The notes under the pieces: generated by a model | What the model was told of the DNA's origin: nothing | Database searches by the model: none | What the model saw: the letters and a program-made list of their open reading frames with translations, nothing else | Program-made: the position numbers and the translations under genes | In this document: positions 2,099 through 53,355 of the stretch, one piece after another | Numbering within the stretch: the first letter of the stretch is position 1 | Layout: every line of letters begins with the position of its first letter | From: a virus | Reading direction: 5' to 3' (one strand) | Virus record (IMG/VR): IMGVR_UViG_3300020421_001669 | Location: 64,001-128,000 of that record | Length of the DNA stretch: 64,000 nt

Positions 2099-3616
2099 AT
2101 GGAATTATTTGGATTAGAAATAACTAGATCCAAGTCAAAGACGGAAAAATCATTCGTTCCGCCTCATGACGATGGGTCTTTAGAAAGTATAAGGGCGGGT
2201 GGATACTACGGTACTTACTTTGATATAGAAGGTACTGCTAATAGTGAAACCCAACTTATCAAAAGATATAGAGATATATCAATGATGGGCGATGTTGACG
2301 CAGCCATTGAGGATGTTGTCAACGATGCCATCGCAAACTTAGATGATGAGAAACCAGTTAAGTTAAATCTTGACAAGGTTCAACAATCTGCCACAGTTAA
2401 AAAGGCGATTGTAAATGAGTTTGACGGTGTTCTTAGAATGTTAGATTTTAACACTAGGGCACAAGATTATTTCAGACGGTGGTATATTGATGGAAGGATT
2501 TTCTTTCACAAAGTCATCGATACTGAAAAACCAAAAGAAGGTTTAAAGGATGTTCGGTATGTAGACCCAAGGAAAATCCGAAAGGTCAGAGAAGTTAAGA
2601 AAGAGAAAGATAAAAAATCTCAAGTAACTCTCGTGAAAGATGTACTAGAATATTTTGTGTTTGATGAGAAGGGGATTGCCACCAACTCACAAATGTCGTA
2701 CAGGACAGATGTAGTTAACGACAAGGCAATAAAGGTTAGCAAAGACGCCGTAACATACTGTACATCGGGTCTAGTTGACCAAGATAGGAACATACCACTT
2801 TCCTATCTTCACAAGGCGATACGCCCTGCTAACCAATTGAGAATGATGGAGAACGCAGTGGTGATTTATCGTATCACGCGAGCTCCAGAAAGAAGAATTT
2901 TTTATATAGATGTTGGAAATCTGCCAACAGGAAAGGCAGAACAATATCTAAAAGATGTTATGAGTCGCTACAGAAACAAACTTGTTTATGATAGTGATAC
3001 TGGTGAGATAAGAGATGACAAGAAGTTTATGTCAATGCTTGAAGACTTCTGGTTACCGAGGAAAGAAGGTGGCAGAGGAACAGAGATTCAAACATTGCCA
3101 GGCGGGTCTAACTTGGGTGAGATTGAAGATGTAGTTTACTTCCAAAAGAAACTATATCAGGCACTCAATGTTCCGATTTCTCGTCTGGAACAACAAAGTG
3201 GACTGAATTTTGGTAGGTCTGCTGAGATTACCAGAGATGAACTTAAATTTACAAAGTTCGTTTCTAAGTTGAGAAATAGATTTAGTGGGATATTTGATGA
3301 CCTACTAAAAACTCAACTTGTACTGAAAGGGGTCATTAACGAAGAAGAATGGCCAGAGATTAGAAATGACCTACAGTATATGTACGCTCAAGATGCCTAC
3401 TATACTGAGTCTAAGGAACAAGAAATTCTTAGAAGTAGGTTAGAGATACTAAACGGTGTGGTGCCATTTATAGGTCAATTGTTTAGTAAAGAGTATGTAC
3501 AAAAGAATATTATGCGATTCTCCGATGAGGAGATAAGTATTATAGACGGGCAAATTGCAGCTAGTCAAGAAGGAGGGGAAGAACCTCAAATAACTAATGG
3601 AGAAGATAATGAGTGA
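2099..3616 (+). CDS. 20: Portal protein
   Basis: YRITRAPERRIFYIDVGNLP, EDFWLPRKEGGRGTEI, EITRDELKF motifs. Confidence 0.97.
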   Translation: MELFGLEITRSKSKTEKSFVPPHDDGSLESIRAGGYYGTYFDIEGTANSETQLIKRYRDISMMGDVDAAIEDVVNDAIANLDDEKPVKLNLDKVQQSATVKKAIVNEFDGVLRMLDFNTRAQDYFRRWYIDGRIFFHKVIDTEKPKEGLKDVRYVDPRKIRKVREVKKEKDKKSQVTLVKDVLEYFVFDEKGIATNSQMSYRTDVVNDKAIKVSKDAVTYCTSGLVDQDRNIPLSYLHKAIRPANQLRMMENAVVIYRITRAPERRIFYIDVGNLPTGKAEQYLKDVMSRYRNKLVYDSDTGEIRDDKKFMSMLEDFWLPRKEGGRGTEIQTLPGGSNLGEIEDVVYFQKKLYQALNVPISRLEQQSGLNFGRSAEITRDELKFTKFVSKLRNRFSGIFDDLLKTQLVLKGVINEEEWPEIRNDLQYMYAQDAYYTESKEQEILRSRLEILNGVVPFIGQLFSKEYVQKNIMRFSDEEISIIDGQIAASQEGGEEPQITNGEDNE

Positions 3617-3896
3617 AGTAGAAAATAAAGAAGTGGAAGTGACTGACCAAGTAACACCACAAGATGCTGTCAGAAACATGATGGATAAGTGGGCAGATGG
3701 TGACTACACAGGCGCAAACGATGACTTTGCGAAGGCGATGGGTACAAGGGCGGATGAATTAGTTTCCGCGAGAAAGGAAGAAATTGCAAATGCAATCTTT
3801 AATGACCCAGAACTACAAAAGATGGGACTTGAGGCTGCATCCGAAGAAGAATTAGAACAAACAGAAACCGAAGGGGAAACAAATGAAGACATTTAA
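3609..3896 (+). CDS. Prohead core protein gp67-like
   Basis: Small acidic ORF directly after portal (T4 synteny). Confidence 0.6.
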   Translation: MSEVENKEVEVTDQVTPQDAVRNMMDKWADGDYTGANDDFAKAMGTRADELVSARKEEIANAIFNDPELQKMGLEAASEEELEQTETEGETNEDI

Positions 3897-4236
3897 AGAG
3901 TTACGCGAGGAAGCGCAACCAGTAGAGAAACCTAAGAAGGAAGTCTCTGCTGCCAATGTTCCTGCTGAAAAAGGAACAGAAGGTCATGTCGTTCCCCCAA
4001 AACAGGGAAGTTCGGAAGACCCGAAACTAACACATATGTGTGCTACTAAGGTTGTCCATCCCAAATTCGGTGAGGGTAAACCCATAGTAGGAGAGCATGC
4101 TGAACCAGACTCAGAAGGTAGCATTGCTTGGTATAGGGTTATGTTTGAACACGGTGTGGAAATGTGTGAAACCTATGCTTTGGAAATCTTAGCAGAAGGG
4201 CCACATGGTAACCACTCCAAGAAAAAAGGATATTAG
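3883..4236 (+). CDS. Hypothetical head-associated protein
   Basis: N-terminus MKTFKELREE resembles the T4 capsid-targeting sequence; lies in the head gene cluster. Confidence 0.55.
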   Translation: MKTFKELREEAQPVEKPKKEVSAANVPAEKGTEGHVVPPKQGSSEDPKLTHMCATKVVHPKFGEGKPIVGEHAEPDSEGSIAWYRVMFEHGVEMCETYALEILAEGPHGNHSKKKGY

Positions 4237-4637: not shown

Positions 4638-5291
4638 ATGAAACTTATAACAGAAACAACAGAAGATATTCAATATATCAAAGAAGATAAAGACGGTAAG
4701 ACAAACCTTTTCATTGAGGGTGTCTTTCTCCAATCTGACCTTAAAAACAGAAACGGTAGAGTATACCCTAAAGAAATCATGCAAAGGGAAGTAGACCGTT
4801 ATGTAAAAGAAAGTATCGATAAGAAAAGGGCAATGGGTGAGTTAGGACATCCAGATGGCCCTACAATTAATTTAGACCGCGTGTCACACATGATTACTTC
4901 TTTGAGAGAAGACGGTTCCAATTACATTGGAAAAGCAAAAATTCTTGATACACCTATGGGAAATATCGTAAAGAACCTTATAGACGAAGGTGCCTCCCTT
5001 GGTGTTAGTTCCAGAGGACTAGGAACTTTAAAAGAAAAGAATGGCATCAACGAGGTACAAGATGACTTTGTACTATCAACTGCTGCTGATATAGTTGCAG
5101 ACCCATCTGCTCCAGACGCCTTTGTTAGAGGTATCATGGAACATAAAGAGTGGGTAATGGTTGAAGGTACTTGGATGGAACAGGACATCGACTTAGCTGT
5201 AAGGCGAATCAAGAAGGCTGGTTCTCGTGAACTAGAGGAAGCGAAGATGGAAGTGTTCAGTTCATTCATGGATAAGCTGTCAAAAATCTAA
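4638..5291 (+). CDS. 21: Prohead protease
   Basis: MKLITE, NRNGRVY, GELGHP, GVSSRGLG, DIVADPSAPDAFV. Confidence 0.97.
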   Translation: MKLITETTEDIQYIKEDKDGKTNLFIEGVFLQSDLKNRNGRVYPKEIMQREVDRYVKESIDKKRAMGELGHPDGPTINLDRVSHMITSLREDGSNYIGKAKILDTPMGNIVKNLIDEGASLGVSSRGLGTLKEKNGINEVQDDFVLSTAADIVADPSAPDAFVRGIMEHKEWVMVEGTWMEQDIDLAVRRIKKAGSRELEEAKMEVFSSFMDKLSKI

Positions 5292-5341: not shown

Positions 5342-6580
5342 ATGGGCGTAGAAAGCAAAATAAGAGAAATGCTCGCTAAGGGTAAGGAAGTAGAATCCGC
5401 TCTTAATGAGGAGACTCAAGAACTGGATGAGGCAGGAGCTGCTGAAAATCTAAAGCCAAATGCAACGGCTGGTGACTCAAGTAATCCAACTCAAGGGAAC
5501 TCAAACCCTAATCCAGAAATTCAAGACCTTAGTGGAACTGGAGACAAGCATGGTGGTTTAACATCTGCAATTGGCCCCGCTTCCGCATCTAAAGTCGGTG
5601 ATGCACCAAGACCTGCTAATTCAGGCGCTGGTCAGGCACCAAACTACGATGGTGGTGAAGACACCGCATCTGTAGTTGCTCAACCATCTTCAGAGGGTAT
5701 TCGTACTCAGAAAGAAGAAGAAGAGGTTGAAGACGAGGTAATCGCTGAAGATGAAGTAGAGAACGAAGAAGAAGTTGTCTCTGAGTCTGAAGTAGAAGAA
5801 GTAGAATCAGAAGAGGAGGACGCAGAGGTGTCACAAGAAACAGAAGAAGAAACATTGTTTGAAAATGACATCCAAAACCTTTTCGCTGACGAGGAACACC
5901 TCTCAGAAGAGTTTAAAGTAAAGGCTGCAGAACTTTTTGAAACTGTAGTCACTGCAAGACTCGCTAACGAAATAGAATCCATTCAGAAAGAACTTGAAGA
6001 ACAGTCTCAAATTGAAAGAGAAACCTTCAAAGAGGAAATGGTAGGTAAAATCGATCAATACCTTAACTATGTCGCTGAAAACTGGATGAAAGAGAACGAG
6101 CTTGCTATCGAGCGCGGTCTTAGGACTGAAATAACAGAAGACTTTATTAAGTCGCTGAAAACTGTTTTCGCAGAACACTACATTGAAGTACCACAAGACA
6201 AGTACGATGTGTTAGGTGAAATGCAAGACGAAATTGAGGAACTTAAAAAGAAACTCAATGAGTCAGTCGAAGCACAAATTAATCTTACTACTGATAGAGA
6301 GTCGCTAATGCGTTCTAAAATTATCGGTGAGATTTCTGAAGACTTAACACTTACTGAACAAGAGAAACTTACTTCTCTAGTTGAAGATGTTGCCTTTGGA
6401 ACTAGTGAGATGTTTGCTGAAAAAGTAACTGTTGTTAAAGAGAACTATTTCCCTAAACAGGAAACTGTTAAGGAAGAGTCCGAGTCCGTAATGACTGACA
6501 CTGTACCCGAAGAACTAATTGAAGAGGGTTCAGCCGTTAGTAGGTACGCTCAAGCGATTTCACGACAAGTTAAAAAATAA
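5342..6580 (+). CDS. 22: Prohead scaffold protein
   Basis: Acidic coiled coil; YLNYVAENWMKENELAIERG; between gp21 and gp23. Confidence 0.93.
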   Translation: MGVESKIREMLAKGKEVESALNEETQELDEAGAAENLKPNATAGDSSNPTQGNSNPNPEIQDLSGTGDKHGGLTSAIGPASASKVGDAPRPANSGAGQAPNYDGGEDTASVVAQPSSEGIRTQKEEEEVEDEVIAEDEVENEEEVVSESEVEEVESEEEDAEVSQETEEETLFENDIQNLFADEEHLSEEFKVKAAELFETVVTARLANEIESIQKELEEQSQIERETFKEEMVGKIDQYLNYVAENWMKENELAIERGLRTEITEDFIKSLKTVFAEHYIEVPQDKYDVLGEMQDEIEELKKKLNESVEAQINLTTDRESLMRSKIIGEISEDLTLTEQEKLTSLVEDVAFGTSEMFAEKVTVVKENYFPKQETVKEESESVMTDTVPEELIEEGSAVSRYAQAISRQVKK

Positions 6581-6636: not shown

Positions 6637-7899
6637 ATGTATCTTTCAGAAGAAATCCAAAAAAAGTGGAGTCCAGTATTGGAACATCCCGACCTTGGCG
6701 AAATCAAGGATAGTTATCGTAAAGCGGTAACAGCTGTTATTCTTGAGAACCAAGAGAAGGCTCTTGCCGAAGAGAAAAATATCACTGAGGCAGTCCACGC
6801 AAATAATATGTCATCTGCGATTGACACTTATGACCCCATCCTTATCTCATTAGTAAGACGAGCTCTTCCTAATTTGATGGCGTATGATGTCTGTGGTGTT
6901 CAACCAATGACTGGCCCAACAGGTCTTATCTTTGCCATGAAGTCACATTACACCTCACAAACAGGTACAGAAGCTCTGTACAATGAGGCTGATACTGACT
7001 TTGCTGGTACAGGTACTCACGCTGGGTCTAATCCAGTTGACGGTTCATACACAACTGGTACTGGTATCACTAGAGACAACGCTGAGTTGTTAGGTGACAC
7101 AGTTACTTTGAACCAAATGGCGTTCTCAATCGAGAAAACAACTGTAACCGCTAAGTCAAGAGCACTTAAAGCAGAATATACTGTGGAACTTGCTCAAGAC
7201 CTTAAAGCAGTTCACGGTCTTGACGCTGAGTCAGAATTGTCAAACATTCTTTCTCAAGAAATTCTCGCTGAGATTAACAGAGAAGTAATTAGAACTATCT
7301 ACAAAGTTGCTAAGACAGGTGCTGCTTCGACTGCATCTGCTGGTACTTTCGACCTTGATGTTGATTCAAATGGTCGTTGGTCTGTAGAAAGATTCAAGGG
7401 TCTCTTGTTCAACATTGAACGAGATGCTAATGTTATCGCTCAAGATACTCGTAGAGGAAAAGGTAACTTCATCATCTGTTCTTCAGATGTTGCCTCTGCA
7501 CTTTCAATGGCTGGTGTACTAGACTACACTCCTGCTCTTGATACTAACTTGAATGTTGATGACACTGGTAACACTTTCGCCGGTACGCTTAATGGCCGAT
7601 ACAAAGTGTATGTTGACCCTTATTCTGCTAACACAGGTGCTGCTTCTCAGTTCTATGTTGTTGGTTATAAAGGAACTTCACCTTATGACGCTGGTCTGTT
7701 CTACTGTCCGTATGTTCCATTACAAATGGTTCGTGCAATTGACCCATCTACTTTCCAACCGAAAATCGGTTTCAAAACTAGATATGGTATGATTGCTAAC
7801 CCATTCGTAACACAATCAGATGGTACAACTGACGCAGATACCTTTACTGCTGATAGAAACCAGTACTACAGGTCTGTTAAGGTTTCCAACCTTATGTAA
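6637..7899 (+). CDS. 23: Major capsid protein
   Basis: GVQPMTGPTGLIFAM, AKSRALKAEYTVELAQDLKAVHGLDAE, FQPKIGFKTRYG. Confidence 0.98.
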   Translation: MYLSEEIQKKWSPVLEHPDLGEIKDSYRKAVTAVILENQEKALAEEKNITEAVHANNMSSAIDTYDPILISLVRRALPNLMAYDVCGVQPMTGPTGLIFAMKSHYTSQTGTEALYNEADTDFAGTGTHAGSNPVDGSYTTGTGITRDNAELLGDTVTLNQMAFSIEKTTVTAKSRALKAEYTVELAQDLKAVHGLDAESELSNILSQEILAEINREVIRTIYKVAKTGAASTASAGTFDLDVDSNGRWSVERFKGLLFNIERDANVIAQDTRRGKGNFIICSSDVASALSMAGVLDYTPALDTNLNVDDTGNTFAGTLNGRYKVYVDPYSANTGAASQFYVVGYKGTSPYDAGLFYCPYVPLQMVRAIDPSTFQPKIGFKTRYGMIANPFVTQSDGTTDADTFTADRNQYYRSVKVSNLM

Positions 7900-11752: not shown

Positions 11753-12292
11753 ATGAACATATTTTATTTACATAAAACCCCTACCGTATCAGTAAAAATG
11801 CATTGCGACAAACATGTCGTGAAGATGGTTATTGAGTACGCTCAGTTATTGTCTACTGCCCATAGGATGTTGGATGGTACACAATGGATTGATGCATCTA
11901 GTGGTAGGAGAATCAAACGGTGGCGACTAGACAATTCCAACATGGATGGTGTCCTATACAAAGCGTCACATATCAATCACCCATCTGCTATATGGGTTCG
12001 TCAAAACAATTCCCAGTATCAATACATGTACAACATGTTTACTAATCTTTGTGATGAGTACACATACAGGTACGGTAAAATACACATGACTGATTCTAAG
12101 TTGCGTGAATTGTTATCCGAGACACCAAAGAACATACCAACTGGTTCTTGGGTTGAACCACCACAATGTATGCCAGATTACTGTAAACAGTCCAACGCTC
12201 TTGATGGGTACAGAACCTATTACAGAGAAGAGAAAAAGGGTTTCGCTAAGTGGACTAACCGCGATGTACCAGAGTTTATGAATGTCGCATGA
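11753..12292 (+). CDS. Pyrimidine-dimer DNA glycosylase/endonuclease V-like protein
   Basis: MNIFYL..HCDKHVVKM..EYAQLLSTAH, HINHPSAIW, PPQCMP, YRTYY family signature. Confidence 0.8.
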   Translation: MNIFYLHKTPTVSVKMHCDKHVVKMVIEYAQLLSTAHRMLDGTQWIDASSGRRIKRWRLDNSNMDGVLYKASHINHPSAIWVRQNNSQYQYMYNMFTNLCDEYTYRYGKIHMTDSKLRELLSETPKNIPTGSWVEPPQCMPDYCKQSNALDGYRTYYREEKKGFAKWTNRDVPEFMNVA

Positions 12293-13401
12293 TATTATCA
12301 AAAGAAGATACGATATATGCTAGTAAGATAGTTGTTGATTACTTCTCAAAGTTTGAGAGGATTGACGATTACTTTCGTGCAAGAAAAATCGAAAGGGTGA
12401 AGGCATTGCCTCCACCCCTTTTTGGTATGAGCGTAGAGGATGACATGTTCCAGAGTTGGGATATGCATCCAGAAGAAATGAATTTTGAAGTTGTTCAAAT
12501 GAACAACGAGGTGTTTGACCAGATGTTAGAGATGACTGCATCTTTTTCACCAGACCAAGCGCCAGGCAAAGAATTAAAACTGATTGTGAAGGAAACGAAT
12601 ACAAACACAGCAGTTGGTTTTATCAAGTTGGGGTCACCGTTAATAAACTCCAAACCAAGGAATGATTTTCTTGGTGGTGTCCCCGACTTGCCTATCTTCA
12701 ACAAGAGGGCAATCATGGGGTTTAATATAGTTCCAGTACAACCATTTGGATTTAATTATCTAGGTGGTAAGTTACTGGCTGCCATTTGTTGTTCACATGA
12801 AGTACGAAGGATGTTGAACAAGAAATATAATACAGAGTTCTGTTTGTTTGAGACTACATCTTTATATGGTAACATAAAGGGTGCTAGTATGTACGATGGT
12901 ATGAAACCCTTCCTAAGATACAAGGGAGATACCATGTCATCATTCTTACTGACTATGGGTGAAGAGATTTATTTTCATCTACGCGATTGGTTTGAAGAAA
13001 AGAATGGTGGTGAAGTTCTTATTCATAAAGGTGCATCTAGTAGAAAACTAAAATACCAAACAAAGATGATTCAAGTTCTCAAGGCAAATCTAAAAGAACA
13101 TGATACAAAAGCATATGAGATGTTTGATAGTGTAATCAAAAAGTCAACCGATGTGACCACACAAAAAAGATTTTATATGTCAGAGTACGGATACAAAAAT
13201 GTACGCGAAGTTCTTTTAGGTAAGACAGAAACACTAGAAAAGGCAGAAAACTTTGACAGGTTTGAACTAGAAAATGTCATTGATTGGTGGAGAAAGAAAG
13301 CCGTCAAAAGATATGACAACTTGGTATCAGATGGAAGAATACGAAAAGATTTGGAAGTCTGGAATTCTGAAACAATTGACAAAATAGATATAATAAGATG
13401 A
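12289..13401 (+). CDS. DUF4338/DruA-like protein
   Basis: VPVQPFGFNYLGGKLLAAICCSHEV...KY...FETTSLYG...SMYD recalls the DruA/DUF4338 core. Confidence 0.65.
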   Translation: MILSKEDTIYASKIVVDYFSKFERIDDYFRARKIERVKALPPPLFGMSVEDDMFQSWDMHPEEMNFEVVQMNNEVFDQMLEMTASFSPDQAPGKELKLIVKETNTNTAVGFIKLGSPLINSKPRNDFLGGVPDLPIFNKRAIMGFNIVPVQPFGFNYLGGKLLAAICCSHEVRRMLNKKYNTEFCLFETTSLYGNIKGASMYDGMKPFLRYKGDTMSSFLLTMGEEIYFHLRDWFEEKNGGEVLIHKGASSRKLKYQTKMIQVLKANLKEHDTKAYEMFDSVIKKSTDVTTQKRFYMSEYGYKNVREVLLGKTETLEKAENFDRFELENVIDWWRKKAVKRYDNLVSDGRIRKDLEVWNSETIDKIDIIR

Positions 13402-18629: not shown

Positions 18630-19106
18630 ATGGCCTATAGTAAGGAAGTAGTAAAAAGGTTTGAAGAAGTAACCAATAATCCACAAGCACATGGCGTAGG
18701 TAGATTTGACCCTAACGACCCACATGTTGCTACAGGACTCACTGGAGCGCCTGCCTGTGGTGATGTTATGAAGTTAGATTTAAAACTTGACCCAGAAACA
18801 GATGAAATTTTAGATGTCAAGTTTAAAACATATGGATGTGGTAGTGCTATTGCTAGTTCTAGTATGTTTGTTGAAATGCTAACAGGACTTACAATCCAAC
18901 AGGCAAAAGAAATAAAGGATAAAGATATTGCGGATGCACTTGAATTACCACCCATTAAAATACATTGTTCTGTATTAGCAGAAGATAGTATTAAAAGAGC
19001 TATTCAAGATTGGGAAGAAAAGAAAGCAGGCCGTAACTCTACTTGGTTAGAGAAAATGGGTGCTAAACCTAGAGAGGGAGAAAAAATTGCGGATAACATT
19101 AACTGA
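18630..19106 (+). CDS. iscU: Fe-S scaffold IscU
   Basis: GAPACGDVMKL, KTYGCGSAIASSS, LPPIKIHCSVLAED. Confidence 0.95.
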   Translation: MAYSKEVVKRFEEVTNNPQAHGVGRFDPNDPHVATGLTGAPACGDVMKLDLKLDPETDEILDVKFKTYGCGSAIASSSMFVEMLTGLTIQQAKEIKDKDIADALELPPIKIHCSVLAEDSIKRAIQDWEEKKAGRNSTWLEKMGAKPREGEKIADNIN

Positions 19107-19410
19107 AGATGCTAAGAAATATTGGACAAGACTTTTAGATGAGAAACCTAGTGCAAAGTATGTACGGTTGGGCGTCAAAGGTGGCGGCTGTGCCGGATTC
19201 TCATATACATGGGACTATACTGATAATTCTGATCGTGGTGTTTTAATTGATGATATCTTAGTTGTAGATGACTACGCGGAAATGTTCTTGCATGGTAGTG
19301 AGATAGTATTTGAAAAAGACCTAGGCGGGTCTCACATTCAAGTAACCAATCCAAATGAAGTAAGTGCCTGTGGTTGTGGAGAGAGTATACAATTCTCAAC
19401 CGCAGTATAG
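19087..19410 (+). CDS. iscA: A-type Fe-S carrier IscA/HesB family
   Basis: GGGCAGFSY and NPN...CGCGES; probable TTG start. Confidence 0.9.
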   Translation: MRITLTEDAKKYWTRLLDEKPSAKYVRLGVKGGGCAGFSYTWDYTDNSDRGVLIDDILVVDDYAEMFLHGSEIVFEKDLGGSHIQVTNPNEVSACGCGESIQFSTAV

Positions 19411-43757: not shown

Positions 43758-43765
43758 TATAAATA
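43758..43765 (+). promoter_or_regulatory. T4-type late promoter TATAAATA
   Basis: Exact consensus. Confidence 0.8.
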
Positions 43766-43798: not shown

Positions 43799-45052
43799 AT
43801 GGTCGGATTTTTATCATATCTAAACGAAGATGCACAGGGGAAAAACCTACATCTTGAACACCTAGAAGACGAAATTCTTAATTTCGGAATAGGTGGAGCT
43901 CGTGGTGCAATTAATTTCCTACAGTCATTAAGAGATATGCTGTCGGGAAGTTCTCGTTCATCTGTAAACATGACAGTCAAGTGGGATGGCGCACCCGCTA
44001 TATTTGCTGGTATAGACCCCAGTGATGGTAAATTCTTTGTTGCTAAGAAAGGTGTATTCAACAAGACACCACTATTATATAAGTCCACGCAAGAGATAAA
44101 CAAAGATAGTAAATTACCACAAGCACTAAAACCCGCCTTTATAATCGCATTACAAGAATTTAGTAAACTCGGAATCAAGGGTGTATTACAGGGTGACTTA
44201 ATGTTCACTTCTGGTTCACTTGAGTCCGAGACCATTGATGGTGAAAGATACACCACATTCCAACCAAATACAATAGTCTATGCTGTTCCTAAAATGTCAG
44301 AACTGGAACAGAAAATCAAAGCGGCTAAAATTGGTGTGGTATGGCACACTACATATACTGGTAACACACTAGAGAGTATGAAGGCATCTTTTGGTGTAAA
44401 CATTAGTGGTCTCAGAAAATCAAAAAATGTCTGGATGGATGATGCTAGTTATAGAGATACTAGTGGAACTTCTACATTCACAAAAGCAGAAACCGCCGCT
44501 GTAACCACGAAGTTGGCTAACTGTGGTAGGATATTTCAGAAAATAAATTCAGCACAATTAAGCAGTTTCTTAAAATTTCAAGCTGGGTTTACGGGCAAAA
44601 TGGTTGGCGCCAACATCAAAACATATAACAATTCAAAAGTAAAAGTTGGTGCGAAGATATCAAATGTCGCTGGACATGTGTCTGGATATGCAAAATGGGT
44701 AGAAGACAAATTTGATTCAGAGATAAATAAGTTAAAGACGGAGAAATCTAAAAGTCAACTAGAAAAAAGAAAGACTGAAACTCTAAGAGAACTATCTAAG
44801 TATAGTGTTCTTCTTACAAATGTCATCAATTTTCAGAACTCTATGGTAGAGGCGAAAATGATAATCGTTAGTAAATTAAATAGAGTAAAACAGTTAATGG
44901 ATACCTTTGTTAGAACCAAACAGGGATTTAAAGTTACAAATCCAGAAGGATATGTTGCTATAGATAGGGTTTCTGGTAACGCGGTCAAACTAGTAGACAG
45001 AATGGAATTCAGTTATAATAATTTTACAGCAATTAAGGCGTGGGATAGATGA
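43799..45052 (+). CDS. DUF6267-like protein with ligase/nucleotidyltransferase motifs
   Basis: HLEHLED, TVKWDG (motif I KxDG), LQGDLM, PEGYV, VKLVDR. Confidence 0.75.
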   Translation: MVGFLSYLNEDAQGKNLHLEHLEDEILNFGIGGARGAINFLQSLRDMLSGSSRSSVNMTVKWDGAPAIFAGIDPSDGKFFVAKKGVFNKTPLLYKSTQEINKDSKLPQALKPAFIIALQEFSKLGIKGVLQGDLMFTSGSLESETIDGERYTTFQPNTIVYAVPKMSELEQKIKAAKIGVVWHTTYTGNTLESMKASFGVNISGLRKSKNVWMDDASYRDTSGTSTFTKAETAAVTTKLANCGRIFQKINSAQLSSFLKFQAGFTGKMVGANIKTYNNSKVKVGAKISNVAGHVSGYAKWVEDKFDSEINKLKTEKSKSQLEKRKTETLRELSKYSVLLTNVINFQNSMVEAKMIIVSKLNRVKQLMDTFVRTKQGFKVTNPEGYVAIDRVSGNAVKLVDRMEFSYNNFTAIKAWDR

Positions 45053-45636
45053 AAACATTAGTATATGCATTTGGTAGGATGAACCCACCCACGGCGGGAC
45101 ACGGAAAACTTATCCAGAAAGTAAAACAACTTGCTCAAAGAGAAAGAGCAGACCATCTTATTGTAGTCAGTCACAGTCAAGATAAAATTAAAAACCCACT
45201 GACACCACAAAGAAAGGTTGCACATCTCAAAAAGATGTTTCCACAAACAAAATTTAAAGCATCTGATAGAGTCAACCCGAATTTTATCAAACAACTTGGA
45301 TTACTTACAGGTAAATATGATAAAGTTATCATGGTTGCTGGTTCAGATAGGGTTCAAGAATTCCAAAGAATATTGGACAGGTACAACGGTAAAGATTTTA
45401 AATTTGATGAAATAGATGTTATCTCTGCTGGTGCAAGAGACCCAGACGCGGAAGGCGTAACTGGTATAAGTGCTAGTAAAATGAGACTATTTGTCAAGAA
45501 CAATGATTTTAACTCCTTCAAACGAGGACTGCCCGCTGGATATAGTGGGTCTCAAGCTTTGTTTAATGATGTGAAGAAGGGAATGGAGTTGAAAGAAGGA
45601 AACTACAACACTTTTTCACAGTTTTTAAGAGGATAA
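45049..45636 (+). CDS. HxGH nucleotidyltransferase (cytidylyltransferase/NadD-like)
   Basis: FGRMNPPTAGH, KNPL, AGSDR, SASKMR. Confidence 0.85.
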   Translation: MKTLVYAFGRMNPPTAGHGKLIQKVKQLAQRERADHLIVVSHSQDKIKNPLTPQRKVAHLKKMFPQTKFKASDRVNPNFIKQLGLLTGKYDKVIMVAGSDRVQEFQRILDRYNGKDFKFDEIDVISAGARDPDAEGVTGISASKMRLFVKNNDFNSFKRGLPAGYSGSQALFNDVKKGMELKEGNYNTFSQFLRG

Positions 45637-45639
45637 CTT

Positions 45640-46344
45640 ATGTCAAAATATTTAAAGGGTTTATTACCCACAACAGGATTGGAGTTCGACCCTAGTTCGG
45701 CACCTCATGGATACGCAGACGAAACTTCTAGTGGGGATGCTGCTTTACCAGATATTGATTTTCCAAATGGGAAATGGGGAATGTTTGGATTAAAATCAAG
45801 TGGGCCTGGCATCAGTGAACCAACTGATTTACCAGATGAATACTATGAAGAAGTCGCTGAAAGAGAAGAACTTCTCGAACAACTAAAAGAGGATGAGGGA
45901 GTAAAATATGAAGTCTATCTTGACCATCTTGGGTACGCCACCTGTGGTATCGGTCACCTCATTAAACCAGAAGATGCCGAAGCGAAACTCGACATTGGAG
46001 ATGAAGTCTCAGAAGAAAGAGTCATCGAACTCTTCAAACAAGATATCGGAATTGCCTGCCGAGACGCCGTTAATCTATACGGCTGGTCTGGATTTTGTGA
46101 ATGGCCCGAGGAAGTCCAAAATATCCTTATTAATATGATTTTTAATTTGGGTATGACTAGACTCAGCAAGTTTAAAAACATGCATAGGGCATTAGAACAA
46201 CAGAACTGGAAACAAGCAGCTATCGAAGGACGCGATAGTAAATGGCACAAACAAGTTACTAACAGGGCAGAAAGATTGATGTCCAAACTAGAAACAATTC
46301 CAAACATTGTCCGTCAATCGGGCCCGATTGGAATTGTTGGTTAA
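45640..46344 (+). CDS. T4-type lysozyme with N-terminal extension
   Basis: E-X8-D-X5-T triad (EGVKYEVYLDHLGYAT), GIGHL, NMIFNLG, SKWHKQVTNRA. Confidence 0.9.
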   Translation: MSKYLKGLLPTTGLEFDPSSAPHGYADETSSGDAALPDIDFPNGKWGMFGLKSSGPGISEPTDLPDEYYEEVAEREELLEQLKEDEGVKYEVYLDHLGYATCGIGHLIKPEDAEAKLDIGDEVSEERVIELFKQDIGIACRDAVNLYGWSGFCEWPEEVQNILINMIFNLGMTRLSKFKNMHRALEQQNWKQAAIEGRDSKWHKQVTNRAERLMSKLETIPNIVRQSGPIGIVG

Positions 46345-46364
46345 TTAAAGGAAAGGAGACCCAA

Positions 46365-46949
46365 ATGTTGCAAGTCATTTTAGACCTTGCGGTTACCTTC
46401 TGGATGTGGACTATTCTAATCGCCATCATCCTAGTAGGCTGGATTATTGATAGATTAGATATGAGACAAAAAACGAATTTGACATTTACCATGAAGGAAA
46501 TGCCACAATTAAGACCGATTGTCATAGAGACAAAAGGAAAAGGTTTTTGGAAATCAATGTTACATTGGTTTTTATCAACTAGAAATTGGGAAGTTACCAA
46601 AGACTGGCACTATACAATAGATGATATTGAGTATGTGATTCCAAAAGGATTCCAGTTTGATGGTGCTAGTATACCTAAATTTTTAAGAACTTTTTTCTCG
46701 CCAGTAGGCATTATGTTAGTCGGTGGGTTGGTTCATGATTATGGATATAAGTATGAAACCTTATTACTAAAAGGTAAAAAGGATACTATCGGAACCAAAA
46801 ATCAAAAATTTATGGATGAGGTTTTCAAAGATATTAATATCAATGTAAATGGGTTTTATCTATTCAATATACTCTCTTATTGGTCATTGCGACTGGCAGG
46901 GTTTATTGCGTGGAACGGACACAGAAAAAGAAATCTCTCCCCAGTATAA
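46365..46949 (+). CDS. DUF1353-like membrane-anchored protein
   Basis: IPKGFQFDGASIP, LVHDYGY; N-terminal TM. Confidence 0.8.
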   Translation: MLQVILDLAVTFWMWTILIAIILVGWIIDRLDMRQKTNLTFTMKEMPQLRPIVIETKGKGFWKSMLHWFLSTRNWEVTKDWHYTIDDIEYVIPKGFQFDGASIPKFLRTFFSPVGIMLVGGLVHDYGYKYETLLLKGKKDTIGTKNQKFMDEVFKDININVNGFYLFNILSYWSLRLAGFIAWNGHRKRNLSPV

Positions 46950-46958
46950 TATCAAGGA

Positions 46959-47180
46959 GTGAAAATGAATGAGAAGATTCTCATAGAACATTATTCAAAG
47001 AAACTTGCAGAACTAAACGAATTATTGGATAGTGGTATGTTAAGTTTCTCGGAGTATGATGAATTAGTGAAAGATTTTAGAGATGTAAGGGCAATTGAGT
47101 CCGATATTGAGGATATTAAGTTAAAAGTATTCGCTGGTGCGGTGGTATCTAGCCTCTCGCCCCAAATTAAATCTTTATAA
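46959..47180 (+). CDS. Hypothetical protein
   Basis: AAGGAG SD; ORF. Confidence 0.6.
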   Translation: MKMNEKILIEHYSKKLAELNELLDSGMLSFSEYDELVKDFRDVRAIESDIEDIKLKVFAGAVVSSLSPQIKSL

Positions 47181-47183
47181 ATA
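47176..47183 (+). promoter_or_regulatory. T4-type late promoter TATAAATA
   Basis: Exact consensus. Confidence 0.8.
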
Positions 47184-47191
47184 GTCATACT

Positions 47192-49498
47192 ATGGAAAAG
47201 ACTTTTGCAGACTTTGTAGATATACCAGAGCTTGAAGAAGGTGTCAATGACCCTGCTATCTTCAAAGCAGTTTTCCTTGCCGGCGGGCCTGGGTCTGGTA
47301 AGTCTTTCATGGTTGGACAAACAGGTCTAACTGGATTGGGTTTCAAGATAGTCAACTCTGACACGGCATTTGAGATGGCCATCAAAAAAGAATTCTCAGA
47401 TAAAATATCACCCATGTCTCCCGAAAATATTTTTTCACTCAAAGGTCAATCTCTCAGAGACCGCGCTAAATTTACAACACAAAAAAGAAAAGATGGATAT
47501 CTTGCTGGTAGACTTGGATTAGTTATTGACGGTACTGGTAGAGAGTACGACAAAATATCAAAACAAAAAGCAGAACTAGAAAAACTGGGATATGAAACTG
47601 CCATGATAATGGTAAATACATCCCTACAAACTGCTGTTGGCAGAGACCAAGCAAGAGACAGGACATTGGGTAAGGCCGCTATCACTCCAATGTGGAAAGC
47701 AGTTCAACAAAACATTGGTAAATTTTCAAACCTTTTTAAACAGAATTTTTATATTGTAGATAATTCAGATGGTGCCGACTTTAAAAAGGGTGCGTTGTCT
47801 GTATATAGAAGTCTTATGTCTTGGTCAAAGAGACCACCACAAGACAGACGGGCGAAGGCATGGATTAAAGACCAGAAACAACAACGCAATATTAAAGAGG
47901 AATTACCACCACATTTAAAAAGACATTTCGATAAGAAAGGAAATGTAATCAAGGGTACATGGAAGGATGGTAAGTGGAGTCCAAATAAGAAACAACCAAA
48001 AATAAAAACCACTATCAAGGATGTGACACCAAAAGGATATGGCCCAACCGAAGATATCAAGAACATGGATATGGGTGATGTCATCAAAGATTTTTACAAG
48101 AGTGATGCACCTCAGTTCAAAGGCAAATCCAAGAAGAAACGCAGAGAGATGGCGATTGCCGCTAAACTTTCCACTGAAGGAGTTTTTGACAGGGATTCCA
48201 AATCAAACTCTTTCAACAGAACTAAGTCTAAAACCACAAAAGTAAAATTGGGTACTAAGGGTGGTAAACCAGTATACGGAAAATCTACTGCACCACAAGG
48301 ATTCCCAAAACTATCTAGTGAAGAAAGAGCTCAAATGGCAATGGAAGATTTACGCAAGTGGTTTGGTAAAGGCCCAAAAGGTGATTGGGTTCGCGTAGGT
48401 ACAGACGGTGAAATTAAAGGAGATTGTGCAAGAGAGCCTGGCGAAGGTAAACCAAAGTGTATGCCTCGTTCAAAAGCTCACAGTATGTCTAAAGATGACA
48501 GAGCAACATCTGCCAGAAGAAAACGCAGAAAAGACCCAGTTGCAGACAGAAAGGGTAAAGGTGGAAAACCAGTTATGGTTAAAACCGATGTCAAAGAAGA
48601 TGTCCAAATTAGTAGGTACGAATGGGGTAGACCAGATGGTACTGCTTATATGAAAGCATTAACGCCTGGCGAGCCTGGAAAAACTACTAAAAAGAACAGG
48701 TCTAATGGAAATAAGAAACATTACAAAGCAGTAATGGAAGCAGGAGATACAGAAGAATTAAAATCAATAGCATCTGCAACCCATGACCAAATGCACAAAG
48801 ATGTAGATGGGACTCAAGATGACTTTGAGGGAATTATCACTCTTGATACCATTGATAACGATTGGACTGCAATATTCACGGAACCAGAAATAGAAGCACT
48901 TGAACACGAAGTTGATGAATTATCTTTTGAAGATATGATGGGTCTGGGAATGTATGACGAAGACGAATTAGAAGATTTTGAGGCATTTGACCAAGATATA
49001 GACTGGCACGATGAAGTACAAATAACTGAAGTTCTATCCATTCAAGGTAGAATGAAAAGACGATTCGCTGCTAGAAGAAACAGACAAAAACTCAAAGTTG
49101 CTCGTATGAGAGCCGCGAGGAGGGCAGCTGACCCAACTAGATTGAAGAGGCGTGCTACTCGTGGTGCAAGAAATATGTTGAAGAACAGGATTGCGAGAGG
49201 TAGGGATTTAAGTGCATTGCCACCTGCTGAGAAGGCTCGTATTGAAGGTATGGTTATGAGATTTTCTGGATTAGTATCTAGGATTGCTCAGAGAATGATA
49301 CCTATTGTTCGTAAGAACGAAATGAAAAGATTGAAATCTGGTTCAAGACAGAAATCCCAGAAGGCGAAGAAGTATAATCCAAAGAAAGCATTGGCTTCTG
49401 CTTCAAAACAGAAGGGTAAAAAGTTTAAGGCAAGTAAAAAAACATTTGCTAAACCAAAATTAGCAAGTAAACCAAAGGCGGCGAAGAAAACGAAATGA
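47192..49498 (+). CDS. Multidomain putative head polyprotein: zeta-toxin-like P-loop kinase, small basic domains, gp68-like C-terminus
   Basis: KAVFLAGGPGSGKS, VNSD, LVIDGTG; EDLRKWF...KPKC; EVLSIQGRMKRRFAARR. Confidence 0.7.
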   Translation: MEKTFADFVDIPELEEGVNDPAIFKAVFLAGGPGSGKSFMVGQTGLTGLGFKIVNSDTAFEMAIKKEFSDKISPMSPENIFSLKGQSLRDRAKFTTQKRKDGYLAGRLGLVIDGTGREYDKISKQKAELEKLGYETAMIMVNTSLQTAVGRDQARDRTLGKAAITPMWKAVQQNIGKFSNLFKQNFYIVDNSDGADFKKGALSVYRSLMSWSKRPPQDRRAKAWIKDQKQQRNIKEELPPHLKRHFDKKGNVIKGTWKDGKWSPNKKQPKIKTTIKDVTPKGYGPTEDIKNMDMGDVIKDFYKSDAPQFKGKSKKKRREMAIAAKLSTEGVFDRDSKSNSFNRTKSKTTKVKLGTKGGKPVYGKSTAPQGFPKLSSEERAQMAMEDLRKWFGKGPKGDWVRVGTDGEIKGDCAREPGEGKPKCMPRSKAHSMSKDDRATSARRKRRKDPVADRKGKGGKPVMVKTDVKEDVQISRYEWGRPDGTAYMKALTPGEPGKTTKKNRSNGNKKHYKAVMEAGDTEELKSIASATHDQMHKDVDGTQDDFEGIITLDTIDNDWTAIFTEPEIEALEHEVDELSFEDMMGLGMYDEDELEDFEAFDQDIDWHDEVQITEVLSIQGRMKRRFAARRNRQKLKVARMRAARRAADPTRLKRRATRGARNMLKNRIARGRDLSALPPAEKARIEGMVMRFSGLVSRIAQRMIPIVRKNEMKRLKSGSRQKSQKAKKYNPKKALASASKQKGKKFKASKKTFAKPKLASKPKAAKKTK

Positions 49499-49971
49499 TT
49501 ACATTCAAACAACTATTAGAAAAAAATGTACCGACCAATCCAAAGTTATGGTCTAAATTTAAATCACAAGCAAAATCAAAGTTTGATGTCTATCCTTCAG
49601 CATATGCGAATGGATGGGCTGCTAAACAGTACAAGAAAGCTGGTGGTGGATGGAAGACTGTATCTGAATCTTTATCTGAAGAGACTGGCGAAGAAATCAC
49701 TATTATTACAGAAGAAGGTGAAAAGAAAAAAGTCAAATTAGGTAAAGTCCAGAGAGGTGGTAGTAAGAAATTTTATGTACATGTCAAGAACGATAAAGGC
49801 AATGTTGTCAAAGTATCGTTTGGAGACCCAAATATGGAAATCAAACGAGATGACCCAGAACGCAGAAAGTCATTTCGTGCAAGGCACAATTGTGACAATC
49901 CAGGCCCTCGCTGGAAAGCAAGATACTGGAGTTGTAAGCAATGGAGGGCCGGTTCCAAAGTAGAGGATTAG
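49495..49971 (+). CDS. Two-domain basic protein (DUF5872-like + DUF6321-like)
   Basis: KFDVYPSAYANGW; KKFYV..KVSFGDPNM..RRKSFRARHNC..ARYWSC. Confidence 0.7.
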   Translation: MITFKQLLEKNVPTNPKLWSKFKSQAKSKFDVYPSAYANGWAAKQYKKAGGGWKTVSESLSEETGEEITIITEEGEKKKVKLGKVQRGGSKKFYVHVKNDKGNVVKVSFGDPNMEIKRDDPERRKSFRARHNCDNPGPRWKARYWSCKQWRAGSKVED

Positions 49972-49972
49972 T

Positions 49973-50212
49973 ATGATTGAGTGGTTAAAGCGGTTACTTT
50001 ACGAAGAGTGGGAGATAACAATTTTCTATCCCGCTGAGACAAGAGTATTAGCAGATGGAACCAGAGTCGAAAGTTTGAAACCAAAAACATATAGGGCGAA
50101 AGCTTTAAAAAAGATATCGGAAAAACATTTTAAGTTCGTTGATACTGAAGGTGTATTGCACGAAATTAGAGTGGTAAGTCCTGTAGGATATGATATCAAG
50201 AAGGTTTACTAA
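49973..50212 (+). CDS. Hypothetical protein
   Basis: GAGG SD; ORF. Confidence 0.6.
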   Translation: MIEWLKRLLYEEWEITIFYPAETRVLADGTRVESLKPKTYRAKALKKISEKHFKFVDTEGVLHEIRVVSPVGYDIKKVY

Positions 50213-50252
50213 TATTATGTTCCTGTGATTGGAATCCCTAGCACTTGAACTT

Positions 50253-50260
50253 TATAAATA
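50253..50260 (+). promoter_or_regulatory. T4-type late promoter TATAAATA
   Basis: Exact consensus. Confidence 0.8.
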
Positions 50261-50294
50261 ATACCTATAAACAAATTTATATTGGAGACACCAA

Positions 50295-52223
50295 ATGTCC
50301 AGCAGATTAGACAGAATAATTAGGGAAGTTCTTGAAGGCGGAGAAAGTACCCTATTAGAAGCGGATATGTCAAGAAGACTTGATATGCTCGTAAGACAGG
50401 GATTAATGCCTGCATCACAATTACCCATTTTAAAACGCGGTTTAGAGAAATTCAATCAAGGTAAAGTGCCTGCGCCGAATGAAAGAAACGCGGTCAACAC
50501 ACTATTGAACGGTATGATGTTCATCGTACTAGGTGACGATACTGTATTCAATAGAGCAAGAACCTCTGTACAACAGAAGAAATATCAAACAGAAGAAGAG
50601 AAAAAAGATTACGATTCTGATAAAGAACACACTATGGATCCTACTAGTCATGTCAAGAAAGAGGGTGAGAAGTTCTGCGTATATGATATGAAAGGTAAGA
50701 AAGTTGCTAGTTTTGAGACAAAAGACGAAGCAGATGCATATGCTAAAAAGAATCACGATGACCTCATGAACGAAGAACTAGAAGAAAACAGAGCAGCTTT
50801 CTCAGGCGCTGCTGACAGAAATAGACTTCTAAAAAAATTACAAAAAACTGGTAAGGTCGCTGATGAAATTGGTGAACCAAAAAAACGAGCGGCCGCCAAA
50901 AAAGAACTTCCTAAAATAATGAAACAGTTGGACACAGGAATTAGGGAAGAAGAACAACTAGACGAGTACGGTGCAATGTCAAGTGATAAGGCATCACATA
51001 ATACTGGTGGATTCAGAATTTCAAATAAAGACGCAGCTGCTGCTAAAGAAAGAGCAAAGAAAAAGAGTGCAGAGAAACGCGACAAGTTATCAAATATAAT
51101 CAAAAAGAACACCATTCAGAAAGGGCCTATGAAAGGTTACATGACGGATGAAGTTAATCAAGGGGAAGAAAAAATGGATATTGATTGGACAAAAAATCCT
51201 TTCGCTCAAGCAAAAGCCATAGAGGAAGGTAAATTTAAGGATATGGCTACTAGGGCATCCGAAGACGAAAGACTCAAGGCAGAGAAAAAAGCTAAAAGAC
51301 TTTCTGATAAGAAGGGTAGAGAAGAAAAAGAAACTGACCCAGGCTTGAAGACTGAAGGTGTTGCTAAGAATACTCTTGATATCTATCAGGCTGCTAAAGA
51401 CTCGAAAGATAAAAAATCTCTCAAGTCTATGGAAAAACAGATGGACAAGGCAGTTGATAAAGCAAACGCTAAACTCAAGGAAGAACTAGAAGGACTACCA
51501 GAGTTAGATGCAATGGACTATGAGATGTGGGAAGCATATCAGTCCCCTACAAAGAACAACTACACCGACAAGGAACTTAGACAGGCGAAAGGTATCGCAT
51601 TTGATAAGAGATACAAAGGCGGTAACATGACAGGTGCTGCTAAGGCAATGGAGAAAATCAAGAAAGGTTTATCCGACCATCCTGTTGCTTCTAAAGCATT
51701 AAGAAAAGCAAACGAAGAGAACATGAAAGATGAGTGGTTGGACTTGTTTGATGGTGTAGAAGATTTCAATGAAATTATGGAGATGTCTTACAAAGAGAAG
51801 TTTACTTCTATGTTGAAGAAGACAGGTAAATCTCTTGCTGGTATGTCACCAGAAGAGAAGAAGAAATTCTTTAACAAAGTAGATGGCGCCCACGATGCAG
51901 TAAACGAGAACAAAGCATTTAGAGATGCTGCTAGGGATTACTCAAAAGATGATAAAAGAGGTATGGCACCCTTAAAGAAGGATGCACCTAAAGTATCAGA
52001 CGCGAAGAACGCCAAAGAAATCGAACATATCGTTCCTCAAATGAGGAAAGCTATTTCAGTAGGTAAGAAAGTACAATTCAAAGATGGTAAACATCACACA
52101 GTTTCCAAGGCACACGCCGCTAAATTCTTGAATAAATACATGAGTGGCAAACCTGCTGATAAAGAAAAAATGCAATCGCATGCCCACGCAAGTCATAAGA
52201 ACTTTATGGATCATGCAAAATAG
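50295..52223 (+). CDS. Highly charged modular protein, putative head polyprotein
   Basis: Lys-rich modules separated by hydrophobic-X-E junctions. Confidence 0.65.
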   Translation: MSSRLDRIIREVLEGGESTLLEADMSRRLDMLVRQGLMPASQLPILKRGLEKFNQGKVPAPNERNAVNTLLNGMMFIVLGDDTVFNRARTSVQQKKYQTEEEKKDYDSDKEHTMDPTSHVKKEGEKFCVYDMKGKKVASFETKDEADAYAKKNHDDLMNEELEENRAAFSGAADRNRLLKKLQKTGKVADEIGEPKKRAAAKKELPKIMKQLDTGIREEEQLDEYGAMSSDKASHNTGGFRISNKDAAAAKERAKKKSAEKRDKLSNIIKKNTIQKGPMKGYMTDEVNQGEEKMDIDWTKNPFAQAKAIEEGKFKDMATRASEDERLKAEKKAKRLSDKKGREEKETDPGLKTEGVAKNTLDIYQAAKDSKDKKSLKSMEKQMDKAVDKANAKLKEELEGLPELDAMDYEMWEAYQSPTKNNYTDKELRQAKGIAFDKRYKGGNMTGAAKAMEKIKKGLSDHPVASKALRKANEENMKDEWLDLFDGVEDFNEIMEMSYKEKFTSMLKKTGKSLAGMSPEEKKKFFNKVDGAHDAVNENKAFRDAARDYSKDDKRGMAPLKKDAPKVSDAKNAKEIEHIVPQMRKAISVGKKVQFKDGKHHTVSKAHAAKFLNKYMSGKPADKEKMQSHAHASHKNFMDHAK

Positions 52224-52256: not shown

Positions 52257-52847
52257 ATGAGTGGATGGGGAGCAACTGATTCAGACGAATCAAAACCAAA
52301 GTGGTTAACAGCAGACCAAAAAGAAGATGTCTTTGCTAACTCTAGTGGTTGGGTTGTAAAAGCTGGGTCAACTATGACAGGAAATGGCAATACAAGTGCC
52401 ACTCCAGAAGTTTTAGTTGCACTTGGTTCACTTGCGACTTCACTAGGACAAGCAACTATTGATGCTGTAGATTTTGTAAGCACAGCGTTTGATGTTTCAG
52501 ACGGAGGCGTAATTTCAGCTGAAGTCAGTTACAACGAACAAGTAACCGTAGCAACAGCATTCCCGCTGTTAGTTTTAACAAACAACCAAGCGGGTGGTGG
52601 TTCAGCAGCTAGTGTTACACTAACAATGGATGGAACTTTACCAGTAACTTCTGATAAACTTACATTTAGTGTTACAATAGGTGCTGGTGGTTCAACAATT
52701 GTTGCAGACGATGTACTTTCAATTGGAGCACAATCACTTAACCTCAACGGCGGTACAATCGTTGACACAATCGGTGGTGGAAATGCAGAAAGAGCAATCA
52801 CAGCTGCACAGGGAACTGCTGGTGGAACACTAACCGCAACTGCATAA
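52257..52847 (+). CDS. Virion structural protein (decoration/fibre-like)
   Basis: WG.TD.DE.KPKWL...EVLVA N-terminus; Gly/Ala/Thr beta-rich. Confidence 0.65.
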   Translation: MSGWGATDSDESKPKWLTADQKEDVFANSSGWVVKAGSTMTGNGNTSATPEVLVALGSLATSLGQATIDAVDFVSTAFDVSDGGVISAEVSYNEQVTVATAFPLLVLTNNQAGGGSAASVTLTMDGTLPVTSDKLTFSVTIGAGGSTIVADDVLSIGAQSLNLNGGTIVDTIGGGNAERAITAAQGTAGGTLTATA

Positions 52848-52858
52848 GGAGATAAAGC

Positions 52859-52909
52859 ATGTGTAAATGTTGCAAGTGTTGTACATGTACATGCCCAGAG
52901 TGTAACTAA
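52859..52909 (+). CDS. 16-aa Cys-rich micropeptide (MCKCCKCCTCTCPECN)
   Basis: AAGGAG SD 7 nt upstream; TAATG coupling to the next gene; 8 Cys. Confidence 0.6.
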   Translation: MCKCCKCCTCTCPECN

Positions 52910-53355
52910 TGGCTGATAGTAAACTTTCAGAATTAACGGCAGCTACATCTGTAGCTGCCGCTGACACCTTTTATCTAGTACAAAGTTCTACTAGTAAAGG
53001 TGTGACAGCTGCAAATCTATTCGCTGATGTGGCGACACCTGTATCTTTTTCAGATAAGGTATCAATCGCGGATGTGGATACAGTAACAGGGCCAGGCGCA
53101 GTCTCAGTCGCAACGAATGTGACTAGATTGACAAACCCAGGCACAGGTGGTACACTAACCATTGGTGCTGGTACAGAAGGTCAATTGAAAATTATTGTTA
53201 TGGATGGCAATTCTAGTGCGGTAACACTGACACTAGATGATTCAGACTTGGGTCACGACACCATTACATTCAATAATGCTGGTGATACGGCAACCCTCAT
53301 ATATACTAATAGTAAATGGTGGATGATAGGGGGAACTGCTACAGTTGCCAATTAG
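52909..53355 (+). CDS. Virion structural protein
   Basis: MADSKLSELTAAT-type N-terminus; G..GQ.K.I and W motifs of fibre-like proteins. Confidence 0.65.
   Translation: MADSKLSELTAATSVAAADTFYLVQSSTSKGVTAANLFADVATPVSFSDKVSIADVDTVTGPGAVSVATNVTRLTNPGTGGTLTIGAGTEGQLKIIVMDGNSSAVTLTLDDSDLGHDTITFNNAGDTATLIYTNSKWWMIGGTATVAN

Follow-up and report, generated by a model that had tools for sequence, protein, structure and literature searches.

The DNA considered here is a 64,000-nucleotide window (bases 64001-128000) of the 161-kb virus record IMGVR_UViG_3300020421_001669, whose completeness is estimated at 91%, and our subject is a block of late genes at positions 43,799 to 52,223, several of which begin with a short leader resembling the sequence by which the T4 internal proteins (IPs) are targeted to the capsid. 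On balance, the sequences make it probable that this block encodes head cargo of the T4 internal-protein kind, which would be packaged and cut internally at least at some sites. The source is a marine T4-like myophage with a probably heterotrophic host, because the window carries T4-type genes for portal (2099), prohead protease (4638), scaffold (5342) and major capsid protein (6637), the closest isolates are the Pelagibacter phages Mosig and HTVC008M and the Methylophilales phage Melnitz, and no psbA was found across the genome; DNA polymerase, helicases and ribonucleotide reductase are also encoded in the window. A block with the same modules, dealt differently among the genes, was found in HTVC008M, in Melnitz and in 80 related IMG/VR loci, which served as the comparison set, and some of the cassettes also occur in cyanophages, where the gene that carries them lies between terS and terL. 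When the block was compared by Megablast with 50,697 phage records, no match was returned. New here are a precursor headed by a kinase, the statistics of module breakpoints and the occurrence in a lineage without psbA.

Leader, late promoters and head machinery

The T4 genes ipII and ipIII both start with MKTYQEFIAE, as a sequence-only reading of this DNA had stated for the T4 internal proteins. Capsid-targeted internal proteins of the T4 type have an N-terminal propeptide of 10-19 residues. In IPIII, residues 4 and 7 are the determinants of targeting and residues 8 and 10 those of processing, and gp21 cleaves after L/I-X-E (PMC9026906). The open reading frames (ORFs) that the sequence-only reading had described (43799-45052, 47192-49498, 49495-49971, 50295-52223 and 3883-4236) all exist. 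The leader was exact at 43799, had F4, L7 and Glu 9 at 3883 and 49495, and was shifted and longer, ending in L-E-E, at 47192; the ORF of 642 amino acids (aa) at 50295 had none.

43799..43828, + strand: leader MVGFLSYLNE (F4, Y7, L8, E10), a capsid-targeting-like propeptide of T4 IPIII type, its spacing fitting the published determinants (PMC9026906)
43799..45052, + strand: DUF6267 protein, 417 aa, with a conserved K-W-D-G (Pfam PF19782, E = 2.4e-101)
47192..47239, + strand: leader MEKTFADFVDIPELEE, aa 1-16 of the 768-aa protein, ending L-E-E and adjoining the conserved G-V-N-D-P start of the kinase
49495..49971, + strand: 158-aa basic protein with leader MITFKQLLE (L-L-E at 7-9), a DUF5872-like module and a phrog_7595 module
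3883..4236, + strand: 117-aa ORF that begins with the leader MKTFKELREE, an insertion between the genes for portal and prohead protease

We searched ORF starts for the pattern M-x-x-[FYW]-x-x-[hydrophobic]-[LIVM]-x-E, with room for one additional residue. In the related loci it was present at 62 of 466 starts within the block and at 1 of 484 outside it (Fisher p = 3e-19), and it occurred at 9 of 7593 internal Met residues. At least ten unrelated protein families bear it, including DUF6267, a 360-aa, a 90-aa and an Arg-rich 130-aa family, the kinase, cytidylyltransferase fusions and several singletons. The matches in the present genome were limited to 3883, 43799 and 49495, the shifted form at 47192 and a clamp-loader gene, the last an evident false positive. 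Judged by this distribution, the leader is a real, portable N-terminal element nearly confined to the late block.

Late transcription of the block is indicated by the box TATAAATA, which occurs 11 times in the window (4.7 expected), always on the + strand, and was found upstream of gp22, gp23, 43278, 43799, 47192 and 50295.

43758..43765, + strand: TATAAATA late-promoter box, 33 nt upstream of the DUF6267 start
47176..47183, + strand: TATAAATA box just 8 nt upstream of the ATG of the 768-aa ORF, suggesting a short-leader or leaderless late mRNA
50253..50260, + strand: TATAAATA late-promoter box, 34 nt upstream of the 642-aa ORF

The boxes before 43799, 47192 and 50295 are kept in relatives, namely in 34 of 75 DUF6267 genes, 12 of 14 kinase genes and all 8 genes of the 642-aa family. 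The earlier claim that the first three leader-bearing ORFs lie behind promoters thus stood for 43799 and 47192 and failed for 49495, which has no box of its own and whose ATG shares bases with the stop codon of the 768-aa ORF. The gap between box and ATG is 5-8 nt in 10 of 14 kinase or kinase-fusion genes of relatives and 5 nt in 12 DUF6267 genes, and mRNAs started there would be leaderless or nearly so. The kinase-fusion and DUF6267 genes with a box at this distance have no Shine-Dalgarno sequence.

The same phage encodes both a protease of the gp21 family and a gp22-type scaffold.

4638..5291, + strand: gp21-family prohead protease, the presumed processing enzyme (tblastn, 63% identity to the Mosig protease)
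6637..7899, + strand: major capsid protein gp23, in which I49-T50-E51 followed by A52 aligns with the T4 maturation site, L-T-E followed by A

The protease shares about 40% identity with T4-type gp21, and the scaffold (5342-6580) matches phrog_237, head scaffolding protein. The conserved gp21 N-termini (MKLIxE) and the alignment of the gp23 site ITE|A with LTE|A of T4 give an indirect view of a putative L/I-X-E specificity in this lineage. The interval between portal and protease is variable, since the ORFs at 3883 (the leader-bearing one) and 4247 have no counterpart at that place in Mosig or S-RIM2. It also holds, directly after the portal gene, a 99-aa ORF (3597-3896) with a weak match to the T4 gp67 prohead-core family (phrog_1064, E = 3e-4).

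Published proteomics of cyanophages offered a view of homologues in the particle. A cytidylyltransferase was detected by mass spectrometry in purified virions of S-SCSM1 (ORF91) and S-CREM2 (gp154) (PMC9602691, PMC10665884), both purified in CsCl, and these two proteins carry exact leaders, MKSFLQFLKE and MKNFSSFLTE, respectively. A cyanophage protein composed of the same modules as those studied here is likewise a virion protein by mass spectrometry. The DUF6267 homologue of S-SCSM1 has no leader and was not flagged as a virion protein. Adjoining the virion cytidylyltransferase of S-CREM2, gp155, gp156 and gp160 (125491-126725, 128342-129235) also belong to the virion according to mass spectrometry and have different N-termini (MSRFEELRTQ, MKKLISELKL and MSSLSERKSR), and there may be additional entry signals besides the F4/F7 leader.

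Modular proteins and their junctions

The 768-aa protein (47192-49498) is divided, behind its leader, as follows.

47240..47899, + strand: P-loop kinase domain, aa 17-236, ending N-I-K-E (AAA_33, Zeta_toxin)
47900..48739, + strand: small basic cassettes in a variable string, aa 237-516, joined at PTE then D, STE then G, AME then D, VKE then D, and VME then A
48740..49030, + strand: acidic segment, aa 517-613 (97 aa, isoelectric point (pI) 4.1), ending Q-I-T-E, with E613 invariant
49031..49498, + strand: Arg/Lys-rich helical domain, aa 614-768, pI 12.0 (phrog_23027)

In the PDB the kinase remotely matched zeta toxin and adenylate kinase, which amounts to a generic likeness to P-loop NMP-kinases and zeta toxins (E ~1e-3), and it is free-standing in Melnitz and HTVC008M. 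Leaders of its homologues vary in length, and in 14 of 15 distinct homologues the leader ends in L-x-E before G (one in L-D-E), the conserved start after the leader being G-V-x-D-P. In relatives the kinase ends in G-I-K/R-E and is then followed by at least six different modules. The cassettes that follow it here (fragment pI 9.4-10.2) are present, absent or relocated to other genes in relatives and in cyanophages. Position 611 holds I or L in 13 of the 14 sequences, which places [IL]-x-E directly before the Arg-rich domain; this domain is free-standing in Melnitz and others behind the leader MKxFxEL..L.E, followed by RK. In an AlphaFold model of the whole protein, the helices of the Arg-rich domain reached a predicted local distance difference test (pLDDT) score of 70-88, and all eight proposed junctions lay in or beside low-confidence linkers (pLDDT<50). 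Pfam found no family in ten excised modules. We also considered the Arg-rich C-terminus as a T4 gp68 prohead core protein and rejected this candidate, as BLASTP gave E >= 2.5 and the profile families differ (phrog_1049 and phrog_14114 for gp68, phrog_23027 for the Arg-rich domain).

50295..52223, + strand: 642-aa basic modular protein, mostly disordered, with no F4/F7 leader and no Pfam or PHROG family

Searches of the 642-aa ORF against Pfam and PHROG returned no family, its ESM Atlas model was poor (pLDDT 0.50) and its Atlas neighbours were unnamed viral clusters. It has a conserved N-terminal domain of about 100 aa that ends in Y-Q-T-E-E, and homology stops at LKTE354 and AVNE538.

The sequence-only reading had described both large proteins as strings of short basic modules joined at hydrophobic-X-E sites. 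Every tetrapeptide that it had listed is present in the ORFs and the cassettes at aa 237-516 are basic, which upholds part of this description, whereas the number of sites does not exceed that in shuffled sequences: L/I-X-E occurred 4 times in the 768-aa protein against 4.3 expected and 10 times in the 642-aa protein against 5.8 (p = 0.05), and hydrophobic-X-E 13 times against 16 and 24 times against 21. An abundance of sites is therefore not evidence in itself. Nor is the 768-aa protein made of short basic modules throughout, as it includes, besides the cassettes, a kinase of 220 aa and the acidic stretch of 97 aa. Several of the listed sites (LSTE, DVKE, AVME) are not L/I-X-E, and the canonical motif is found among the leader and junction sites of this protein at residues 16, 236 and 613 only. 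The claim that each gene yields many packaged peptides was not supported, relying on non-canonical sites and on a number of sites no higher than chance.

The positions of the junctions were more informative than their number. Breakpoints were taken from an all-against-all comparison of the block proteins, keeping module ends with at least three different neighbours. Modules do move between genes. Of the 36 ends retained in this way, 18 had Glu as their last residue (background 7%, p = 4e-12) and 9 fitted [LIVM]-x-E (background 1.9%, p = 2e-8), with flat controls for Asp, Lys and Arg; this is in line with the proposed check for module shuffling with breakpoints at X-X-E. In a first, loosely de-replicated tally the enrichment of Glu had been about 2-fold, and the signal was clear only for junctions with at least three neighbours. 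The DLRKWFGKG cassette and the Arg-rich domain are also found as separate genes directly behind a leader, in which case the Glu of the leader occupies the same junction.

Probable head cargo and the alternatives

Packaging, the individual cuts, ejection and the role as cargo, all of which we infer, would run as follows. Several products of the block would be precursors with a 9- to 16-residue leader of T4 IPIII type, having an aromatic residue at position 4, hydrophobic residues at 7/8 and Glu at 9 or 10. The leader would bind the precursors to the gp22 scaffolding core, by which they would become enclosed in the prohead, and the gp21-type protease would then cut it off after L/I-X-E. Long precursors would probably also be cut at a few sites between modules, the 768-aa protein after IKE236, at the end of the kinase, and after ITE613, before the Arg-rich domain; weaker X-X-E junctions may be cut too. 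The kinase, the DUF6267 protein and a number of small, basic products would thus come to lie in the DNA-filled head and would leave it with the DNA. Cutting might extend to every junction, and the ejected proteins might act against host defences. More generally, marine T4-like phages could follow a polyprotein strategy for head cargo, in which one leader-addressed late precursor gives rise to an enzyme and small basic proteins and the cut sites double as joints for the swapping of cassettes; we put this forward as a tentative idea that we hold to be less likely than not.

A number of observations weigh against packaging with internal cutting. The counts of candidate sites in both large ORFs are not above chance, most junctions (PTE, STE, AME, VKE, VME) are P/S/A/V-x-E and not L/I-X-E, and, of the 18 ends in Glu, 9 have a hydrophobic residue at P3, a modest surplus over the roughly 27% expected; Glu-rich linkers could mimic Glu-ended breakpoints without any protease. 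As for the leader, T4 gene 61.1 (18966-19130) starts with MKTFKEFIKE, a perfect match to the pattern, and is annotated just as a hypothetical protein beside the primase gene and not known to be packaged, so that bearing the motif does not in itself prove packaging. S-SCSM1 ORF30 bears the leader and yet was not flagged as a virion protein, and in the present phage neither the 642-aa ORF nor the cytidylyltransferase or lysozyme has an F4/F7 leader.

The chance-level counts and the non-canonical junctions would suit a simpler alternative, in which the proteins are packaged and lose only the leader, the two large proteins (768 and 642 aa) remain uncut, as cargo of several domains or as internal proteins that condense DNA, and the Glu junctions reflect linker composition. 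T4 Alt provides a precedent, being a large cargo trimmed just at its ends (PMC9026906). We regard this alternative as unlikely, in view of the enrichment of Glu but not of Asp or Lys at robust breakpoints, of the conservation of canonical I-K-E and I-T-E exactly at the two main domain borders and of the existence of the same modules as separate leader-bearing genes. It appears more improbable still that the products are unpackaged, late cytoplasmic enzymes or nucleic-acid-binding proteins of the nucleotide, NAD or RNA-repair type, with an N-terminus selected for another use such as expression from short-leader mRNAs or partner binding. The families present (ligase-like DUF6267, an HxGH nucleotidyltransferase and a P-loop kinase) would fit such functions, a TATAAATA box that lies 5-8 nt ahead of the ATG hints at translation starts of an unusual kind, which might constrain the first codons, and gp61.1 of T4 has the motif with no known packaging. 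However, the motif is limited to N-termini of the block, where it heads unrelated families, among them genes with ordinary leaders of 30-40 nt, it ends in a protease-type L/I-X-E adjoining the conserved start of the mature domain, and leader-bearing homologues were found in CsCl-purified virions in two studies. Very improbable, finally, is a role as scaffold-like components of the prohead core that are degraded by the protease, with most peptides leaving before DNA packaging as those of T4 gp22, gp67 and gp68 do. The 768-aa ORF does combine acidic and highly basic segments and one leader-bearing ORF lies inside the head-gene module, but the C-terminal domain lacks likeness to T4 gp68, homologous enzymes persist in mature virions and enzymatic domains would be unexpected in a disposable scaffold.

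If the block does specify packaged and partly cut cargo, its closest known counterparts are IPI, IPII and IPIII of T4, with which it shares a leader of about 10 residues (aromatic 4, hydrophobic 7/8, Glu 10) joined to unrelated proteins, late expression, a gp21-family protease with a gp22 scaffold, and basic cargo. Unlike in T4, the predicted cargo includes enzyme domains (DUF6267 and the P-loop kinase, and a cytidylyltransferase in relatives) and long multi-module precursors, the leader comes in two registers, with Glu at 9 or at 10, besides longer variants, and the mature parts have no sequence homology to the T4 IPs. T4 Alt, an ADP-ribosyltransferase that is trimmed by gp21 at both ends, is similarly a large head-carried enzyme with an N-terminus rich in L/I-X-E (MELITELFDE). 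Alt, however, lacks an F4/F7 leader and is not strung together from shuffled cassettes, and the present block has no ADP-ribosyltransferase domain. Among the ejection and inner-body proteins of phiKZ, 201phi2-1 and SPN3US, many head proteins are cut after Glu by gp21-like proteases at short motifs, S/A-X-E or the like, sometimes at multiple sites, and some of the junctions described here (STE, AME, ATE) suit S/A-X-E better than L/I-X-E. Those are giant phages with other proteins, whereas this is a T4-type myophage of 161 kb whose cassettes shuffle between genes. The polyvalent proteins of phages and conjugative elements described by Iyer, Burroughs, Anand, de Souza and Aravind in 2017 are reportedly long, multi-domain products, thought to be delivered with the DNA and said to be processed in some cases; Pfam found none of their hallmark domains here, where the modules are tiny, basic and of no known family.

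The NMNAT-like cytidylyltransferases of cyanophage virions (S-SCSM1 ORF91, S-CREM2 gp154 and S-CBWM1) are homologous nucleotidyltransferases from the same kind of late block, and the papers that report these copies, which carry the exact leader, make no mention of a targeting leader. Our search of the literature for a capsid-targeting sequence in cyanophages or marine T4-like phages turned up the T4 review alone and nothing on these enzymes. In T4 the targeting sequence is textbook material, and the review foresees its use for other cargo (PMC9026906). T4-like myophages that infect SAR11, OM43 and picocyanobacteria rank with the most abundant marine viruses. Should the leader indeed act as an address, a simple rule on sequence would suffice to predict which proteins of thousands of uncultured phages are packaged and act first, and it would explain the recurring 'metabolic' enzymes in purified cyanophage particles; the kinase, the nucleotidyltransferase, the DUF6267 protein and the basic modules would then be candidates for takeover or counter-defence at a very early stage. 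The exchange of cassettes at protease sites, if real, would be a mechanism for rapid diversification of cargo, and under a polyprotein strategy the sequence alone could reveal what uncultured ocean phages inject and how this cargo evolved.

Further genes of the block and its flanks

Membership of the 417-aa protein in DUF6267 is clear (340 bits against a cut-off of 27, residues 16-412), and K-W-D-G is invariant in the family alignment. This motif prompted a comparison with ATP-dependent ligases and capping-enzyme nucleotidyltransferases, which bear KxDG within the ligase adenylation fold. A profile search against PDB sequences gave no match, Foldseek gave nothing at E <= 0.001, its sole ligase match standing at rank 38 with E = 0.53 (model pLDDT 64), and a VIA-align wide search gave just helical or helical-bundle look-alikes (Z <= 7). 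The C-terminal module of the 158-aa protein at 49495 forms the end of cytidylyltransferase fusions in other phages. Between the DUF6267 and 768-aa genes lie three leaderless ones.

45049..45636, + strand: cytidylyltransferase-like (HxGH) nucleotidyltransferase, 195 aa (Pfam PF01467, phrog_3041)
45640..46344, + strand: phage lysozyme domain (Pfam PF00959, residues 83-205) after an N-terminal extension of about 85 aa
46365..46949, + strand: DUF1353 protein with a hydrophobic N-terminus (Pfam PF07087)

The nucleotidyltransferase begins right at the Rossmann strand. In relatives a short lysozyme of 148 aa is followed by a small lipoprotein-like (spanin-like) ORF (11898-12712 in locus L015, 3853-5118 in locus L020), and because of this pairing a lysis cassette seems to be embedded in the cargo block.

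Nearly all genes of the window are on the + strand, and the GC skew is positive across positions 1-64000. Downstream of the block, two conserved Gly/Thr/Ala-rich ORFs (52257-52847 and 52909-53355) are present in every relative; they are annotated 'S-layer' in HTVC008M and Melnitz, and neither is preceded by its own TATAAATA box. In all relatives the two large genes have between them a 79-aa ORF (49973-50212 in the window) with the conserved N-terminus M-I-E-W-L-K-R-L-L-x-E-E-[WYF]-E.

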